A stretch of DNA of 64,000 bases from an uncultured Actinomycetes bacterium (GCA_963841735.1 CAWJDT010000001.1:1248001-1312000), one strand, 5' to 3'; positions 1-9,769 are shown, counted from the stretch's first letter. The notes: a model not told the origin generated them from the letters alone. Translations and numbers: made by a program.

Positions 1-523
1 TGTAGTCGGCCGCCTGGCAATTGTGGAGGCACAAGAAGCTTAGCTCCGTAAGCCCCGCAAGGGGAGTGATATCGCCGACGTTGTCACCACCTAGGTTAAG
101 ACTCTCGAGATGCACTAGTCCGGCAAGGGGGCTGACATCCGTGCTCGCGTGGAACGCGAGTTCCAGGTTCTTTAGATTCACGAAATACTTCAGGGCGCTT
201 ATGTCCTTGATCTGCATGTCTTCGGGCGACTGCCACGGGATGTTGAGACGCAACTCCGTCAATGTCGCCGCCTCGGCAGGGGTGATATCGCCGGTGGGTT
301 TGTTGAGGGCCGCGCGGATCCCTTGCTCGAGCACGGGGTCGTTGAAAACCACGACCTCCGCCACGGTGGTGGGTGGTGTCGTGGACGCAGTGGTCGGCGG
401 TAGGGTAGCGGCTGTTGAGGCCACTGTGCTCTCGGCCGGCTCTCCGGCTACGGAAGAGCCGCAAGCTGCCAGTCCCACCGCCAGGATCGCTAGGACGACA
501 ACCGACAACAGCATCCGTTTCAT
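1..523 (-). CDS. Leucine-rich repeat (internalin-like) lipoprotein, partial (3' end runs off window)
   Basis: Not in ORF track. Manual translation from ATG 523 (GGGAG RBS): MKRMLLSVVVLAILAVGLAAC (lipobox), Thr-rich linker, FNDPVLEQGIRAALNKPTGDIT cap, then LRRs (IKDISALKYFVNLKNLEL, DVSPLAGLVHLESLNLGG, DITPLAGLTELSFLCL). Confidence 0.85.
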   Translation of the reverse strand, partial: MKRMLLSVVVLAILAVGLAACGSSVAGEPAESTVASTAATLPPTTASTTPPTTVAEVVVFNDPVLEQGIRAALNKPTGDITPAEAATLTELRLNIPWQSPEDMQIKDISALKYFVNLKNLELAFHASTDVSPLAGLVHLESLNLGGDNVGDITPLAGLTELSFLCLHNCQAADY

Positions 524-831
524 GAATCGACTCCCTTGATTGGTTGAAGCCACCGATGGGTGTATGACCCGCAAGAACGATAACACGCGGAGTGGCGGAA
601 AGGGGCTCCCAGTAGGGAGGCCGTTCTAGGTATCGGGAGTCACAATCACCTTGCAGAATCGGAGGCGCTATTCCCTATGGAGCGACCGGGCATCGCGCAC
701 TTGAGCAGGTTCGCGCCGTAGACCACCAGCTGATTGGCCTCTTGCCGCCCCATGCTCTTGGGCCCCGCAGTTTGCAGGGGTCTTGCGCCGTTCTAGGCGA
801 GCACCAACCGGAAGACAATGTCGGTGGTTGT

Positions 832-1067: not shown

Positions 1068-2957
1068 CTACTTCACCGCGTAGAGATAGCCGTCGGCACT
1101 GCCGAAGTAGGCCACCCCGTCGGAGACGGCCGGAGAGGACACGATGCTGCTAGGGGTATCGAATCTCCACATCTTCTGTCCGCTCCTGCTGTCCAGCGCA
1201 AAGACAGCGCTGTAGGTGGTGCAGTAGAACATCCCGTCCGAGACGATTGGGGAGGAGGTAGGCCTGAAGGAAGCCGTCCAAGGCGCAGTCCATTTGACAT
1301 TGCCCCCGCTTGCGTCCAGCGCCATGCAGCCCTCGCCACTGCCGCCTAAATAGACGGTCCCGCCTGAGATGGTCGGGGAGTAGGACACAACGTCGCCGCC
1401 CATCTCAATCTTCCACTCCTCCACCCCACTCGTGCCGTCCAATGCGTAGATGTGGCCCTCAACGGAGCCGAAGCACACCGTGCCTTCCGAAGCTGCCGGC
1501 GCCGACACAGCCCAGTCACTCTGGAACGTCCACTTCACCTGCCCGCTCCTGCCGTCCAGCGCATAGATACGCCCGTCTTCGCCCGTGCCGAAGTAGACCA
1601 TTCCGTCGGAGACGACCGGGAGCGACACGTCTCCATTCGTCTCGAACTTCCATATCTGCTTGCCGGTGCTGCTGTCTAGCGCATAGACGTAGGCCGCGTT
1701 GTTGTCGGTATACGCGCAGAAATAGACCACCCCGTCCGAGAAGATCGGTCCCCTTCCGTCCATGTTGTTCTTCTCGAATGTCCACCTCTGCTGCCCGGTC
1801 ATCCTATCCACCGCGTATAAGAGGCCGTCATTGCAGTCGAAGTAGACCGCATCCTCGGAGACGGCCGGGGGGGACCGCCGCGGAGACCAAGTATCATCCA
1901 CGGTTGGGAAGAATCTCCATTTCTCCTCCCCGCTGGTGCTGCGGAGTGCGCATAGGTATTGGTTACCGCTACAGAAGTAGACCATGCCGTCCAAGACGGC
2001 CGGGGACGACCAATCTTGTCCCGCCTGCGTCTGGAACTTCCAGAGAAGCTCGGGCACAGGGGTGGTCGAGGCCGCGGTGGTCGTGGTCCCGGGAGCGTCC
2101 GTGGTGTAAGCCGCGACGCTGGTGGAGGTGAGATTGTCGGTGGTGCCGTCCTTCTCGCCCCCGGTCAGCACGGTGAACAGTACTATGCCCGCCACTACGG
2201 CGACTGCCACGGCACCCAAGGCAGAAAGCACCCAGGGACGACGGTACCAGGGCCTGGCGGTCGGCACCGCGTGCTCAAGCCGGGCTGCCTTGGCAGCGGC
2301 GTCGACTGCTGCCTTCGCGTCGGCTCCTGTCTTGGCCGCAGCTTTTGTCGGAGCCTCTTCTGTTGCCCCGGCCGCGGCTGCACCTACAGCCTCTGCCTTC
2401 GCCCGTGCCTTCGCCGCAGCTTCCGCTTCCGCTTCAGCCCGGGCCTCCGCCCGGGCCTTATCCAATGCCGCCGCCCTGGCCTCCGCGTCCGCCTCGGCCC
2501 TCGCTTCCGCCTCCGCCTTGGCCTTTTCCTGCGCCGCGAGGGCGGCTCTTCCAGTCCGGTCCAACAGACGCTGCACTGTATTAGCCAGATGTTCGAGGTG
2601 TTTCTCCAGAGGCGGAGTGAGCGCATCCAACCAGTGGGTGCTGCTTATGTAGTACTCCATGGCTTCGGAGGGAGGCACGTCCTCTATGCGGAAGGGCAGT
2701 ATGGGCATGTCCCGGGTCGCCGCCCTTTCGATCTCCCTCATCACGTGCCCGGACCTGTTCGACTTGGAGGAGAAGACGAGGACCATCACGTCGGCACCAT
2801 GGATGGCCCGGATGAGCTGCTGCGCGTAGTTCTGGCCGGGTAGGACATCGCGAGGGGCGACCCAACAGCGGATGTGGCTTGCTTCCAGAGCGGCGCACAC
2901 CGCGTCCGCGGTGGCCTTGTCTTCGGTCGAATAGCTTATGAAGACGTCGTGCGCCAT
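1068..2957 (-). CDS. TIR domain - Ala-rich linker - TM - PQQ/BamB-like beta-propeller membrane receptor
   Basis: N-terminal HDVFISYS...CWVAPRD...SGHVMREIERA (TIR, catalytic Glu present); AEAEARA linker; TM VLSALGAVAVAVVAGIVLFTVL; about 8 repeats of SSPAVSDGVxYFGSxDGxxYALDxxSGxxKWxF. Confidence 0.9.
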   Translation of the reverse strand: MAHDVFISYSTEDKATADAVCAALEASHIRCWVAPRDVLPGQNYAQQLIRAIHGADVMVLVFSSKSNRSGHVMREIERAATRDMPILPFRIEDVPPSEAMEYYISSTHWLDALTPPLEKHLEHLANTVQRLLDRTGRAALAAQEKAKAEAEARAEADAEARAAALDKARAEARAEAEAEAAAKARAKAEAVGAAAAGATEEAPTKAAAKTGADAKAAVDAAAKAARLEHAVPTARPWYRRPWVLSALGAVAVAVVAGIVLFTVLTGGEKDGTTDNLTSTSVAAYTTDAPGTTTTAASTTPVPELLWKFQTQAGQDWSSPAVLDGMVYFCSGNQYLCALRSTSGEEKWRFFPTVDDTWSPRRSPPAVSEDAVYFDCNDGLLYAVDRMTGQQRWTFEKNNMDGRGPIFSDGVVYFCAYTDNNAAYVYALDSSTGKQIWKFETNGDVSLPVVSDGMVYFGTGEDGRIYALDGRSGQVKWTFQSDWAVSAPAASEGTVCFGSVEGHIYALDGTSGVEEWKIEMGGDVVSYSPTISGGTVYLGGSGEGCMALDASGGNVKWTAPWTASFRPTSSPIVSDGMFYCTTYSAVFALDSRSGQKMWRFDTPSSIVSSPAVSDGVAYFGSADGYLYAVK

Positions 2958-2998
2958 CGCTATGCCCCTGACGCTGAACGGCCGTGGTGAATAGAGGG

Positions 2999-3007
2999 AC
3001 TATAACA
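2999..3007 (-). promoter_or_regulatory. Extended -10 element for the TIR-PQQ gene
   Basis: TGTTATAGT on the minus strand, about 40 nt upstream of ATG 2957. Confidence 0.45.
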
Positions 3008-3051
3008 CCGCGCGATACGGACCAGACAGCACACTGTGCCCTGGTGCGAAC

Positions 3052-3525
3052 CTACGAGCGATCGACACCCAGCCCCGCGCGGGCAAGAAGCTGCGGGAGG
3101 CGGACGACCCGCTCGCGGTCCTTTTCTCGCTCGGACTCGGAGAGTTCCTCATACGGGATCATGCTGGGATGGGTCTTGCCGGCGCTATCTCTAACCGGAC
3201 CCCGGCGCCATCCACTTGCTCCTCGCATTCGCATCCACCGCTGGTGCTCTTCCTTGGCGAGCAGCTCCAGTTCGGGGGGGTCGATTTCGAGGGGTTCGCC
3301 GCCATCTCGGATCGGAACGATGATCGCTCCTATCTTGCCCAGCATTTCGGCAATGTCGTTCGCCCGGCGGCGGACGGACATCTTTTTCGTTCGCGAGAGT
3401 GCGTTCCACGCCTGCGCCTCTGGCGGGTTTCCGCCACCTTCCGGGGAGTTGCTCCCCCACAGAGGGTCTTCGTGGATCACACGGGCCAGGGTCTCCCGGA
3501 CTTTGGGGTCAAGGGGAGACGCCAT
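3052..3525 (-). CDS. Stand-alone RyR (ryanodine receptor repeat) domain protein
   Basis: LELLAKEEHQRW...GWRRGPVRDSAGKTHPSMIPYEELSESEREKDR is the RyR repeat signature; a degenerate first repeat (LARVIHE...WNALSRTKKMS) precedes it; start overlaps SLATT stop (TGATG). Confidence 0.88.
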   Translation of the reverse strand: MASPLDPKVRETLARVIHEDPLWGSNSPEGGGNPPEAQAWNALSRTKKMSVRRRANDIAEMLGKIGAIIVPIRDGGEPLEIDPPELELLAKEEHQRWMRMRGASGWRRGPVRDSAGKTHPSMIPYEELSESEREKDRERVVRLPQLLARAGLGVDRS

Positions 3526-4010
3526 CAGGCACCCTCACCCCCAGGTGGGGACGATGATTCACCCTGCAAGTTCTTCCAGGTCACGTTCTCAGACCCCATG
3601 AGCGACTCGCATCTCTGGACCAAGACAGCCGCGGGGTCCGTGATGCCGGCGTACGGGCCGCTGCTGAAGCGAAAGAGCTGAGCTTCCCGCTCAAGCGATT
3701 CGCAAGTCATGCGATGCAGCGACCACTCCTCCTTGTGCCGAAAGGCCGCGAGTAAAAGCGTAGCGATGGCTCCTATCACGGCCACGGCGATGGGAAGGAT
3801 CTCGACTAGAAGCTGGACCACGTCGTCGCGGGGCGGTGGTGAATAGATCATCTCAACGGCCAGCAGCAGGGGCGTCAGTGAGGTTGCCGCCACCGACAGG
3901 ATCACGAGTCTACGGTAGGAACGCTTGCTGGCCGCCGCTTTGCGGTTGTGGTAGTCGATCTGGCCGGCAAGACGGTTCTGGAGGTACTCTTCGGCGCCTG
4001 GTGTGTTCAC
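3525..4010 (-). CDS. SLATT (DUF4231) 2-TM effector protein
   Basis: YLQNRLAGQIDYH..KA, two hydrophobic helices, WSLHRMTCESLEREAQLFRFSSGPY and ENVTW motifs. Confidence 0.85.
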   Translation of the reverse strand: MNTPGAEEYLQNRLAGQIDYHNRKAAASKRSYRRLVILSVAATSLTPLLLAVEMIYSPPPRDDVVQLLVEILPIAVAVIGAIATLLLAAFRHKEEWSLHRMTCESLEREAQLFRFSSGPYAGITDPAAVLVQRCESLMGSENVTWKNLQGESSSPPGGEGA

Positions 4011-4111
4011 GGTGTCGGGTCCTCCATCAGGTTATGAGCTTCCCAGTGTGCCCAGCTGACTTCGCCACTCGCGCTCTCGATGGCATCGATCAAGAAGATA
4101 TCGTACGCCAT
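4007..4111 (-). CDS. 34-aa mini-ORF coupled to SLATT (possible TIR-like gene remnant)
   Basis: GGAGG RBS, MAYDIFLIDAIESASGEVSWAHWEAHNLMEDPTP*, stop overlaps SLATT GTG start (GTGA). Confidence 0.4.
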   Translation of the reverse strand: MAYDIFLIDAIESASGEVSWAHWEAHNLMEDPTP

Positions 4112-4432
4112 CGATCCGTCCTCCGCTGTCCGTCTGACGATCAAATGCGCTTTGAGTCTAGCATCGGCCGTCTTGGGCTGTTGCCGGGGATGCGAAGCTG
4201 GAACACAGCTTGTCCACGACGTAGTATGGCTTTGGCACTCCTACATTGATGCCCACCGGCGGTGTGGCCCTCGATTCTCAGGGGGCCTGGTTCTGCCGCA
4301 TCACAATCCTTCGCGGTGGAATTCGGCATAAGCTCCAGGCCGGCCCGCCGGCCGTAGAGTGCTATCCGCTGCGGCAGGGAGCAAAGCCGAGCACGTAGTC
4401 GCCAAAGAGACTTCTTTAACATAGGGGCAAGC

Positions 4433-7147: not shown

Positions 7148-9769
7148 ATGAGCCTCGATCAACTTTTCGACGGTTGGTCTTCCGCCGTAGCCCCCTACGC
7201 GCTGGGGCTGATGGTTGCCGCGCTGCTCTGTGCATCCCTGGCTGCCGTGGGTTGGGGGTGGCGCGCGAAGCCGGGGGGGCCGCAGTTTGTCGCGATGATG
7301 ATCGCGGCTGCGATTTGGGCGCTCCTGTATGCCCTTGAGCTGACCGCACCCAGCCTGGCTGGGAAGGTCGTATGGGCAAAGGCCGAGTATCTCGGCATCG
7401 TTGTGCTACCTGTTACATGGTTCCTATTTGCCCGCGGTCACACCGGAGGCCCAAAGAGGCGGGGCTGCCGGCTTGTGGTCTTGGTCAGTATCATTCCGGC
7501 TGTCACGGTCGCACTTGCCGGCAGCAACGAGTTCCACGGTTTGTTGTGGAGCGAGGTGTCGCTGAGCACCTCAGGGCCATTCCCCGCACTCGCCTTGGAG
7601 TACGGCCCCTGGTTCTGGGTTCATATGGTCTACTCCTACGCACTGCTCGCCTTGGGGAGCTTCCTGCTACTCAGGGCGGTATATCGCTTTCCCCAGGTCT
7701 ACCAACGACAAGCGGGGATGTTGATGATCGCGGCGCTTGCACCATGGGTGGGGAACGCACTGTTCATCTTCGGCGCGGCGCCTGCGGGGAGCCTCGACCT
7801 GACCCCGTTTGCCTTCACCGTCACCGGAGCGGCCTTGGCCGTCAGTATGTCGCGGTTCCGTCTGTTCAGCCTCCTGCCGGCTCTGCTTCCGACGGCGCGG
7901 AATCAAGTGCTCCAAACGATGAAGGACGGCGTCCTGATACTGGATGTCGACGGGCGAGTGGTGAGCGTCAATCCTGCCGCCAACAAAATGATCGGCGAGC
8001 GAGCCTCTGATGTCATCGGCCAGCCGGTGTCGGGAATCCTGGGCGATTGTCTGGCTACCCACCTTGCGACTGACGACGGGCCCGATTCGCAGTTCGAGAT
8101 ATCCCTGGGCGATAAAGCATTCCCGCGCAGCTACGATGTGGTCTCCTCGCCTGTTGGCCTTGGCCGTGGTATCGGCGTCGGTCGGCTCCTGGTCCTACGG
8201 GACATCACTACTCGCGCGCAGGCTGACGAAGCGTTGCGGGAGAGCGAAGAGCGCTACAGAGAGCTCTTCGAGCTCGAATCGGATGCGATCGTGCTCGTGG
8301 ACAACGAATCCGGCAAGATTCTGGAGGTCAACGCCGCGGCGATGGTGCTTTACGGTTACAGCCGGGAGGAATGGCTTTCTATGAATCACACCGACGTATC
8401 CGTAGAGCCCGACAAGACCCGCCAAGCCGCGGTGGACCAGCTGACGCGCATACCTGTCAGACGGCACAGGAAGAAGGACGGCACTGTCTTCCCGGTAGAG
8501 ATCACGGGCCGGCACTTCGATTGGAGGGGACGTTCCGTTCACATCGCCGCCATTCGTGACATCACCGAGCGCGTTGAGGCGGAGCAGGCTCTCCACGAGC
8601 GCGACGACCAGCTTCGCCAAGGGCAGAAGATGGAGGCCGTCGGCCAACTCGCCGGCGGTATCGCCCACGACTTTAACAATCTGCTCACTGCCATTATCGG
8701 CTACAGCGACCTGATCCTCGCTTCAAGCGAAGGCGTGGGTGATGCACTGCGAGCCGACGTGCAGGAGATCAAAGTCGCCGCTGATCGGGCCAGTGCCTTG
8801 ACCCGCCAGATCCTAGCCTTCTCTCGTCGCCAAGCCCTAAGGCCCGAGGTGGTATGTCTGAACGAGATCGTGGCCAGTACCGAACGGTTACTGTGTCGCA
8901 CTCTCGGCGAAGACATCGACCTGGTCACGCTGCTTAGCCCCGAATTGGAGCTGGTGGAAGTGGACGCGTCTCAATTTGAGCAGGTGCTAATGAATCTGGC
9001 CCTCAACTCTCGTGACGCCATGCCTAACGGGGGGAAGCTGACTATAGAAACGGCGAATGTGGAATTGAGCGACGAGTACTGTGCCTCGCACCTGGGGTCT
9101 AGGGCGGGCCTCTACGTCATGCTGGCCGTCTCCGATACTGGCGACGGCATGGACGAAGAGACGAGTTCGCGTGTCTTTGAGCCCTTCTTTACCACTAAGG
9201 AGCCGGGAAGGGGGACCGGGCTCGGGCTGTCCACCGTCTACGGCACCGTAAAACAGAGTGGCGGCAGTGTCCTAGTCAGCAGCGAGCTGAGGAAGGGCAC
9301 GACTTTTACAATATACCTGCCCCGAGTCGATGTACCGATCAAGAACCGGCCCACCTCCGCTGCCAGGTCAGGCTTGACGGGTGGTCTGGAGACGATCTTG
9401 GTGGTGGAAGACGAATCCTCGGTCCGGGATCTTGTCGCGCGGGTTCTCCAACGTCTTGGCTACCAGGTGATAGGCGCAGCGAACGGTGACGATGCTCTGG
9501 TCATTCTGGAAGACGGCAAGTGTTCGGTCGATATGTTGCTGACCGACGTGGTCTTGCCGGGAACCATGCAGGGTAACGAGCTCGCACAGGCAGTCGGCCC
9601 GCTCTACCCGCACTTGCCGGTGCTCTATATGTCGGGGTACACCCGTGACGCCATCGTCCACGCGGGCCGGCTGGACGAAGGGGTCAACTACCTCGAGAAG
9701 CCCTTCACGCCCGATGGACTAGGCCGCCGAGCGCGCGAGGTTCTGGACTCCCAAGCTGTTGGCGGGTAG
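7148..9769 (+). CDS. Hybrid sensor histidine kinase (HisKA_7TM-PAS-PAS-HisKA-HATPase-REC)
   Basis: 7TM N-terminus, two PAS domains, [13 protein letters not shown]-box, [15 protein letters not shown]-terminal receiver (LLTDVVLP). Confidence 0.95.

Follow-up and report, generated by a model that had tools for sequence, protein, structure and literature searches.

According to the sections of a December 2025 preprint (10.64898/2025.12.03.692087) that define Thoeris types V–XI, type VII consists of a TIR protein, ThsB, and a SLATT protein, ThsH, and defends via canonical cyclic ADP-ribose (cADPR), the SLATT oligomer being the proposed signal binder, and type X consists of a TIR and an ion channel whose signal was not identified. 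Here we describe a locus of an uncultured Actinomycetes bacterium, lying in a 64,000-nucleotide stretch of its genome (GCA_963841735.1, CAWJDT010000001.1:1248001-1312000; hereafter the window), in which genes for a SLATT protein, a stand-alone RyR-domain protein and a TIR protein with a predicted membrane anchor and β-propeller follow one another on one strand. The locus resembles type VII in that a TIR gene with its Glu intact lies near a gene for a SLATT protein with two transmembrane (TM) segments, and in its expected logic, by which a TIR-made signal derived from ADP-ribose would act on a membrane effector; the SLATT likeness is one of domain family and not of comparison with the ThsH sequence. 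It departs from type VII in its third gene, whose two-repeat RyR product is translationally coupled to SLATT, in its TIR, which is a predicted membrane protein with a propeller whereas ThsB is cytosolic, and in its position outside a defence island. A first-pass annotation, made from the sequence of the window alone, had not recognised the system among named defence systems. For the TIR–SLATT pair this does not stand, as the pair is that of type VII in the sections cited above, and it is the RyR partner that is undescribed: the term 'RyR' has no occurrence in the main text of 10.64898/2025.12.03.692087, and a search of the literature, the supplementary lists of the 29 putative Thoeris types apart, found no paper on RyR domains of cellular origin that have TIR or SLATT as partners. 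In the part of the paper that describes it, the Thoeris pipeline required high-defence-score TIR clusters and discarded PF00211 systems, so that loci of this kind would be missed. The module is probably a form of Thoeris immune signalling not described before, with type VII as its nearest relative.

The RyR fold (PF02026) found in the window protein is also that of the phage proteins RyDEP (DyoEdafos gp78; PMC13232231) and RyR Tad (CB1 gp68; 10.64898/2026.06.04.730250). In the parts of PMC13232231 that deal with binding, six of eight tested phage homologues bound TIR signals, two of them measured with nanomolar constants, and only DyoEdafos RyDEP degraded the signals; W78 of RyDEP stacks on the adenine, H100 contacts the phosphates, and H75 and D117 form the catalytic dyad. 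RyR Tad, in the corresponding parts of 10.64898/2026.06.04.730250, binds 3'cADPR at 43 nM via H129/W132, K147/H154 and K170/D171 and also binds 2'cADPR and cADPR. In contrast to these, the window RyR is cell-encoded and chromosomal and is found with SLATT beside a TIR, which is the host side of the pathway, and it is a single chain of two repeats, the first degenerate, whereas the phage proteins are homodimers of one repeat. The DyoEdafos RyDEP gene (L073, 49285-50613) lies between genes for ribose-phosphate pyrophosphokinase and nicotinamide phosphoribosyltransferase, neighbours that fit the NAD+-rebuilding account given in part of PMC13232231.

With Repeat12 of animal ryanodine receptors (e.g. 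human RyR3 848-1055) the window protein shares the fold, the motif HExW...GW.YG..RD...HP...E.ER, a candidate adenine-nucleotide site and a membrane-conductance protein as putative partner. It differs in being a free 157-residue protein and not part of a 5000-residue channel, and its partner is a two-TM SLATT protein without Ca2+ channel homology. The link of the animal receptors to cADPR is debated. Parts of both 2026 preprints on the phage proteins discuss that question (PMC13232231; 10.64898/2026.06.04.730250). Among NTP-dependent conflict systems of multicellular bacteria, the relevant parts of Kaur et al. 2020 (PMC7159879) describe TIR effectors with attached sensors of the WD40, TPR, FGE-sulfatase or propeller kind, and the STAND, NACHT, HEAT and SLATT neighbours around many RyR loci recall those systems; however, the paper makes no mention of RyR, TrkA or PQQ, and the window module has no NTPase.

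Predicted products of the locus

The TIR protein gives a TIR_2 match (1.4e-21) at residues 5–113, followed by matches to PQQ_2 (1.5e-41) and related propeller models, and its best NCBIfam match is the AfsK propeller region (1.5e-49). From the N-terminus it is built of the TIR domain, an Ala/Glu/Lys-rich helical linker, a short basic stretch, one TM segment (score 2.71 in a Kyte-Doolittle scan with a 19-residue window), a Thr-rich linker and a propeller of the PQQ/BamB type, the blade repeats of which (D1–D4) recur inside the gene in steps of 117–135 nt. Because basic residues lie on the TIR side of the TM helix, the positive-inside rule predicts a single-pass protein with the TIR domain inside and the propeller outside. 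When the TIR domain alone was compared with the PDB by sequence, one weak match was obtained; a profile of the RyR-linked TIR domains gave an alignment in which E75 coincides with the Glu of the C(W/L)(D/E)EL motif in Cat1, ROQ1 and RPV1, which we take to be the catalytic Glu of TIR NADases. E75 is invariant in all nine RyR-linked TIR domains. The intact catalytic Glu and the membrane-receptor layout that the first-pass annotation had proposed are thus upheld, the one by alignment and the other by hydropathy prediction. The predicted parts (ectodomain, single TM helix, cytoplasmic TIR) are analogous to those of a Toll-like receptor, with no homology claimed beyond the TIR, but the order is reversed, the TIR being N-terminal, and the ectodomain is a propeller instead of leucine-rich repeats.

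The PF02026 match of the RyR protein (2.4e-15; 57 bits against a curated cut-off of 27.4) covers residues 87–153 only. An AlphaFold2 model of the protein (pLDDT 90.7, pTM 0.83) is a two-repeat helical domain, for which Foldseek returned crystal structures of human RyR3 Repeat12 (6uhb, 9l9b; probability 1.00, TMq 0.63–0.70, about 200 columns), the structural matches including complexes with ATP, ADP, AMP-PCP and dantrolene. The sequence profile likewise matches animal Repeat12 and Repeat34 units, together with a B. thetaiotaomicron protein, and a hydropathy scan found no TM segment. The entire 157-residue protein is a conserved unit, homologues typically being matched over residues ~9–156; a HMMER search with it of 1.84 billion representative proteins gave 7643 matches at E≤0.001, of which 2283 reached E≤1e-10, and the best matches among phage relatives cover 27–43% of its length at <60% identity. 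An ungapped alignment of 43 residues with DyoEdafos gp78 has 22 identities, and in it H94, W97, H119 and D136 fall on RyDEP H75, W78, H100 and D117, all identical. Across 20 stand-alone homologues, H94, W97 and D136 do not vary and the position of H119 is His in most; H94, W97, H119 and K135/D136 make up a candidate ligand site. The earlier suggestion that the stand-alone RyR domain binds a TIR-made nucleotide has found experimental backing in the phage RyR domains, whose four key residues the window protein keeps.

The SLATT protein matches NCBIfam SLATT_1 (1e-24), Pfam DUF4231 (1.8e-14) and Pfam SLATT_1 (1.4e-07), and a hydropathy scan places its TM segments at residues 35–53 and 71–89. All three domain families of the first-pass annotation were in this way recovered by profile search. 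Prediction of a RyR–SLATT complex from the two alignments scored 0.00 in two runs, which is evidence neither way.

As read from the sequence, a GTGA joins the stop of a mini-ORF to the SLATT start, and in TGATG the SLATT stop and the RyR ATG have one base in common. A spacer of 94 nt separates the RyR stop from the TIR start, and the TIR gene lies 568 nt downstream of SLATT on the same strand with RyR in between (Table 1). Four same-strand genes, the first three of them coupled, had been annotated here; the positions, both overlaps and the gap proved correct, but the mini-ORF is probably not a gene of the system. It has no family match in Pfam, NCBIfam or PADLOC scans and is not kept upstream of SLATT in two related loci, L017 and L066. 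The mini-ORF starts with MAYDIFL and the TIR protein with MAHDVFI, and L017 has a TIR gene at the position of the mini-ORF upstream of SLATT. Descent of the mini-ORF from an upstream TIR gene was considered and rejected as unsupported (7 columns aligned by hhalign at a probability of 6.8%; BLASTP E=0.18).

Table 1 Window coordinates of the module and of the tRNA remnant beside it
Feature	Position	Strand	Basis
TIR-TM-PQQ propeller protein, 629 aa	1068-2957	minus	TIR_2, PQQ_2 matches
TIR domain, residues 1-136, candidate catalytic Glu E75	2550-2957	minus	
Predicted TM helix, residues 246-264, RPWYRRPW just before	2166-2222	minus	Kyte-Doolittle
Predicted extracytoplasmic beta-propeller, residues ~303-628	1074-2051	minus	PQQ_2, Beta-prop_ACSF4, PQQ matches
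Stand-alone two-repeat RyR (Repeat12-like) protein, 157 aa	3052-3525	minus	PF02026 match
SLATT_1/DUF4231 two-TM protein, 161 aa, GTG start	3525-4010	minus	SLATT_1, DUF4231 matches
Mini-ORF, 45 aa from TTG or 34 aa from ATG	4007-4144 (TTG) or 4007-4111 (ATG)	minus	ORF call
tRNA-Met 3' remnant (823-854), terminator hairpin (858-883) and T-run: att-like scar	823-893	plus	

Linkage of RyR, SLATT and TIR genes across genomes

The genome that holds the window (2.82 Mb, 8 contigs) has one RyR, one DUF4231 and two TIR_2 matches, of which all but one are found within a span of 3 kb. The other TIR_2 match (G000:C1:419684-420046), in an open frame of 272 residues, is away from any RyR gene. Close relatives of the two smaller proteins are few: at E≤0.001, and with the window's own proteins counted, the RyR search gave 7 proteins among 499 candidates and the SLATT search 6 among 265. 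SLATT relatives of 70–84% identity are on the same contigs as RyR relatives, and since several relatives of both kinds have the longest-contig values 1841, 3725 and 4477 in common, the RyR–SLATT pair appears to travel together. In L017 the gene order is TIR (426 residues)–SLATT–RyR with all ends overlapping, and the TIR domain is identical to that of the window at 96 of 136 positions (71%) with an unrelated C-terminal part. L066, from the same genus as the window, has the window's order SLATT–RyR–TIR, an ATGA overlap at the RyR gene, and a TIR C-terminus that is 3-keto-disaccharide-hydrolase-like. A TIR-TM-Kelch protein (P0176), a SLATT protein (P0010) and a RyR protein (P0007) have a single longest-contig value, 4477, which is a fingerprint and leaves their adjacency unproven. 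Next to one and the same SLATT–RyR pair, a conserved TIR module thus carries three or four kinds of predicted ectodomain. The TIR subfamily is large: of 8000 candidates that were scored, 479 proteins reached E≤0.001, and the 120 relatives listed are 43–76% identical over the TIR part, and their C-termini include PQQ, Kelch, WD40, TPR, Sel1, FGE-sulfatase, solute-binding, RDD, MFS and hydrolase domains.

A wider survey consisted of two scans seeded with RyR alignments only, the genome scan using a 9-sequence alignment, and gave 16 metagenome and 20 genome loci. Pfam was run on 45 chosen open reading frames (ORFs) of the metagenome set and on 81 of the 122 listed ORFs of the genome set, distant or shorter ones being dropped, and TIR_2 was found in L017, L018 (two genes), L020, L021, L045, L048 and L049. 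A hidden Markov model (HMM) was built from the nine RyR-linked TIR domains and run on all stop-to-stop ORFs of at least 60 residues in the 36 loci; at E≤1e-9 it matched in 12 of them, namely the seven Pfam-positive loci together with L023, L028, L033, L037 and L039, and L040 gave a weak match (3e-4). Among the 23 remaining loci are contigs of 1.2–5 kb and the phage-type loci L024 and L032, which carry genes for DNA polymerase B, UvsX and ribonucleotide reductase. As background, genomes of 3.5, 2.8, 5.7, 3.0 and 8.4 Mb have 3, 8, 7, 2 and 3 TIR_2 matches, respectively, the chance of a TIR in a 16-kb locus is about 1–3%, and even at p=0.05 the binomial tail for at least 12 of 36 loci is 1e-7. 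In the genome of L037, two of the three TIR_2 matches are within 7 kb of a stand-alone RyR gene. On the marine contig L023 (5123-9313), a TIR-TM gene (299 aa), a 376-aa gene, a free one-repeat RyR gene (95 aa) and a TrkA_N-RyR gene stand in a row.

The bacterial family of the window organism gave the same picture. Among its 61 genomes, searched with the RyR profile at E≤1e-5 and the TIR profile at E≤1e-10, RyR was found in 9 (this one included) and TIR in 13; 7 genomes have both, 2 have RyR only (both short, weak matches), 6 have TIR only and 46 have neither (one-sided Fisher p=1.2e-4, a value overstated by the dependence of kin genomes). In the seven genomes with both, 18 of 25 TIR matches are on the RyR contig at no more than 10 kb from the RyR gene. 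The neighbourhoods of seven of the eight other family RyR loci were inspected, that of G446 being left out, and in six of them TIR genes adjoin the RyR gene, commonly in runs of 3–5 TIR-TM-Kelch genes. One of the six is L066 with its triad. An AAA...RyR protein, of 850 aa in L067 and 565 aa in L068, adjoins three TIR-Kelch genes in each locus, and L071 has a 793-aa protein with a C-terminal RyR and TIR-Kelch genes close by. At L069 (995-3520) and L070 (8332-10893) the RyR module belongs to a Guanylate_cyc-AAA_16-RyR protein (842 and 854 aa), with one TIR-Kelch gene cut by the contig end at L069 and four such genes at L070. A hydrophobic segment follows the TIR in 10 of 11 scanned TIR proteins of L067, L068, L070 and L071, and 9 of these 10 have a Kelch propeller. 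The cyclase-AAA_16-RyR genes beside TIR-TM-Kelch genes hint that a TIR signal might be passed on as a second signal, made of a cyclic nucleotide. G410 (C14:138210-142616) and G418 (C1 and C4) have arrays of this TIR type, and no RyR gene was detected in them.

The association extends to a protein fusion, P0232 (639 aa), with the architecture TIR-RyR-RyR-X-TIR, in which the TIR is of the same subfamily, the middle part is uncharacterised and the second TIR is a TIR-like domain. For the three large genes, linkage exceeds chance: a TIR gene stands beside RyR genes far above expectation (12 of 36 loci, and 6 of 7 family loci), and the co-occurrence that the first-pass annotation predicted is borne out. 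An explanation of the locus as unrelated adjacent units, SLATT–RyR on one side and TIR on the other, could point to the 94-nt gap and to the varying gene order among loci, but these statistics and the fusion protein contradict it and make it a very improbable account.

Most cellular RyR modules occupy a different position from that of the window protein. RyR is usually C-terminal on output-type proteins, which are channel-like 2TM+TrkA_N proteins, AAA proteins or cyclase-AAA_16 proteins, and such varied C-terminal fusions are what a sensor domain would show. Of the 38 hits scanned among 150 listed, 11 carry a TrkA_N domain and between one and four RyR modules. TrkA_N-RyR genes occur at L018, L020, L034, L036, L040–L045, L048 and L050. 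Of the 13 such proteins in loci, 11 begin with two hydrophobic segments around a conserved pore-helix-like stretch, and that of L050 alone has a TVGYG filter and an Ion_trans_2 match. Judged from their domains (TrkA_N/RCK with 1–4 RyR modules), these proteins look like ligand-gated channels. They recall Thoeris type X in that the RyR relatives are C-terminal on 2TM+TrkA_N proteins beside TIR genes (L018, L020, L023, L045, L048); in contrast, the passages of 10.64898/2025.12.03.692087 on the type X effector are silent on RyR, and the window has a SLATT protein and not a channel. A free RyR protein coupled to a two-TM SLATT protein, as in the window, is an unusual arrangement.

Genomic setting of the module

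Within about 12 kb, the neighbours of the module encode a Rex-like regulator, an ABC permease, a thiolase, an NlpC/P60 protein, a GNAT protein, a leucine-rich repeat (LRR) lipoprotein, an MFS protein and a 7TM hybrid histidine kinase. No transposase, integrase, phage gene or defence family is found among the window neighbours. PADLOC 2.0.0, a release that predates Thoeris type VII, gave weak TIR-type matches only and none for RyR or SLATT. With neighbours of housekeeping type, an enrichment in known defence genes was not recovered. The LRR lipoprotein gene (2-586, minus strand) runs off the window start, and the HisKA_7TM-PAS-HisKA-HATPase-REC hybrid kinase gene (7148-9769, plus strand) lies 3 kb upstream of the module; neither has an evident link to it.

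The first-pass annotation had also placed the locus next to att and insertion sequence (IS) scars. The att-like part of this claim survives as a tRNA-Met 3' remnant with an exact GTCCCCGCTACCA at 842-854, followed by a hairpin terminator (Table 1). The remnant was not called by ARAGORN, and an Rfam scan of 560-1100 gave only sub-threshold hairpin matches. For the IS part, we found neither an IS or transposase remnant nor a Pfam match in the intergenic ORFs, and a search for flanking repeats around 1068-4144 gave only the intragenic propeller-blade repeats and short chance pairs. The same ~140 nt, with an intact tRNA-Met and the terminator, stands beside the homologous cassette in congener G456 (L066, 9560-9700), where the cassette orientation is inverted relative to that in the window. 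An inverted cassette at a tRNA-Met suggests either a tRNA-associated insertion spot or a cassette inversion, and the tRNA remnant, taken with the patchy distribution, leads us to regard the module as an accessory cassette sited at a spot associated with a tRNA. The neighbouring MFS gene was of no use for tracing synteny, since within the family no relative exceeds 41% identity.

Proposed mode of action and wider meaning

We consider it somewhat probable that the three large genes together make up a single Thoeris-like module, working through an NAD-derived signal, in which the RyR protein binds the signal and acts with SLATT. In such a module, clustering of the ectodomain by a cue from outside or from the envelope would bring TIR domains together and lead to NAD+ cleavage or cyclisation. 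The TIR product, most likely a cyclic ADP-ribose isomer, would be bound by the two-repeat RyR protein, which translational coupling would keep in a fixed ratio to SLATT. Liganded RyR would then let SLATT open or assemble in the membrane, with depolarisation, growth arrest or death as the outcome. Of these elements, we infer the ligand, the coupling of RyR to SLATT, the outside-in trigger and an anti-phage role.

Several observations weigh against this interpretation. No defence island is recognisable around the locus, where the neighbours are of housekeeping type, and the TM topology is based on a simple hydropathy scan. Some of the domains that make up the TIR HMM come from 7 of the 36 loci, which makes only 5 of the strong matches independent of its construction; Pfam supports the 7 source loci independently. 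RyR occurs without TIR at the family locus L072, where no TIR gene stands beside the RyR gene, and at many short or phage-like loci, and conversely 6 family genomes with the TIR type had no detected RyR, pointing to other TIR partners or to incomplete assemblies. SLATT beside a stand-alone RyR is rare (2 of 43 other RyR loci, L017 and L066), and a fused SLATT-RyR was found in none of the 38 hits scanned of the 150 listed. Finally, since the type VII SLATT alone is proposed to bind cADPR, a RyR receptor is not obviously needed.

The same chemistry might serve a non-suicidal role, in which the membrane TIR would read the envelope, nutrients or neighbour cells and ion flux or physiology would be adjusted reversibly. 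To our knowledge, the characterised Thoeris TIRs are all cytosolic, and the membrane position predicted here would suit such a role, as would the housekeeping-type surroundings, a propeller of the AfsK-like Ser/Thr kinase type, the arrays of TIR-TM-Kelch paralogues, predicted extracytoplasmic sensors, in relatives, and the fusion of RyR to TrkA_N channel-like proteins and a nucleotide cyclase. Nevertheless, occurrence within the family is patchy, at 9 of 61 genomes, the tRNA remnant and the orientation opposite to that in the congener look like those of an accessory, possibly mobile cassette, and the ectodomains are swapped on a conserved TIR, as diversifying immune receptors would show. Moreover, other RyR loci have conflict-system genes (STAND/NACHT, WD40, TPR, DUF4062) nearby, and SLATT and TIR are established defence parts in the sections of 10.64898/2025.12.03.692087 that treat them. 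A physiological role is in our judgement doubtful, while still deserving serious attention.

Within an immune module, the main point at issue is the sign of RyR action. RyR may be a brake, SLATT sensing the TIR product directly, in the manner proposed for ThsH, and RyR soaking up or hydrolysing stray signal and so setting a threshold or ending the response; RyR would then be the cell's equivalent of phage RyDEP or RyR Tad. Ring nucleases, which end type III CRISPR signals, offer a parallel. This model stays alive because the type VII SLATT is self-sufficient, Thoeris of that type functioning with TIR and SLATT alone in the passages concerned (10.64898/2025.12.03.692087), and because the RyDEP dyad H75/D117 is present as H94/D136; in addition, phage homologues act as sponges or glycosidases in the parts of PMC13232231 on them, and the one-base coupling of SLATT to RyR recalls a toxin and its guard. 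However, the dyad does not predict hydrolysis, because among the eight phage homologues six bound and only RyDEP degraded (PMC13232231, same parts), and most cellular RyR modules are C-terminal on output proteins, which is the usual position of a sensor and not that of a free buffer. The two roles are not exclusive, as a sensor may also degrade its ligand. The fusion of RyR to outputs elsewhere favours a receptor over a brake, and we regard a pure brake as unlikely.

A further possibility is that no signal passes from TIR to RyR, the TIR being an NAD+-depleting effector or a scaffold and RyR sensing ATP, ADP or another adenine nucleotide. Many bacterial TIRs are plain NADases, and the closest folds to the RyR model are human RyR3 Repeat12 structures with ATP, ADP and AMP-PCP. 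This account, however, leaves the recurrent adjacency and fusion of TIR and RyR unexplained, and phage RyR domains bind TIR products with nanomolar KD in the parts of PMC13232231 and 10.64898/2026.06.04.730250 that report binding; we hold it to be quite improbable.

If RyR is a receptor for the TIR product, as we favour, the module would be the host-side counterpart of the 2026 phage RyR sponges and hydrolases, and RyR would join SLOG, Macro and others among the signal-sensing domains of TIR immunity. More broadly, and tentatively, since we place less confidence in this than in the module itself, bacterial RyR domains may be host receptors for TIR-made messengers of the cADPR type, with interchangeable outputs and fed by families of membrane TIR receptors, the propellers of which would read extracellular cues. 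The outputs would then comprise a SLATT pore acted on in trans, 2TM-TrkA channel-like proteins, AAA ATPases and cyclase-STAND proteins. TIR enzymes wired as membrane receptors raise the question of NAD-derived signalling that starts outside the cell, and, if true, this would be a bacterial outside-in pathway resembling that of Toll-like receptors and ending at a ligand-gated membrane conductance. Small, soluble and easily purified RyR proteins such as that of the window would allow a test of whether a Repeat12-type domain transduces cADPR binding to membrane conductance, which has long been debated in animals, and the pathway would be a plausible prokaryotic root of the connection between cADPR and the animal ryanodine receptor.

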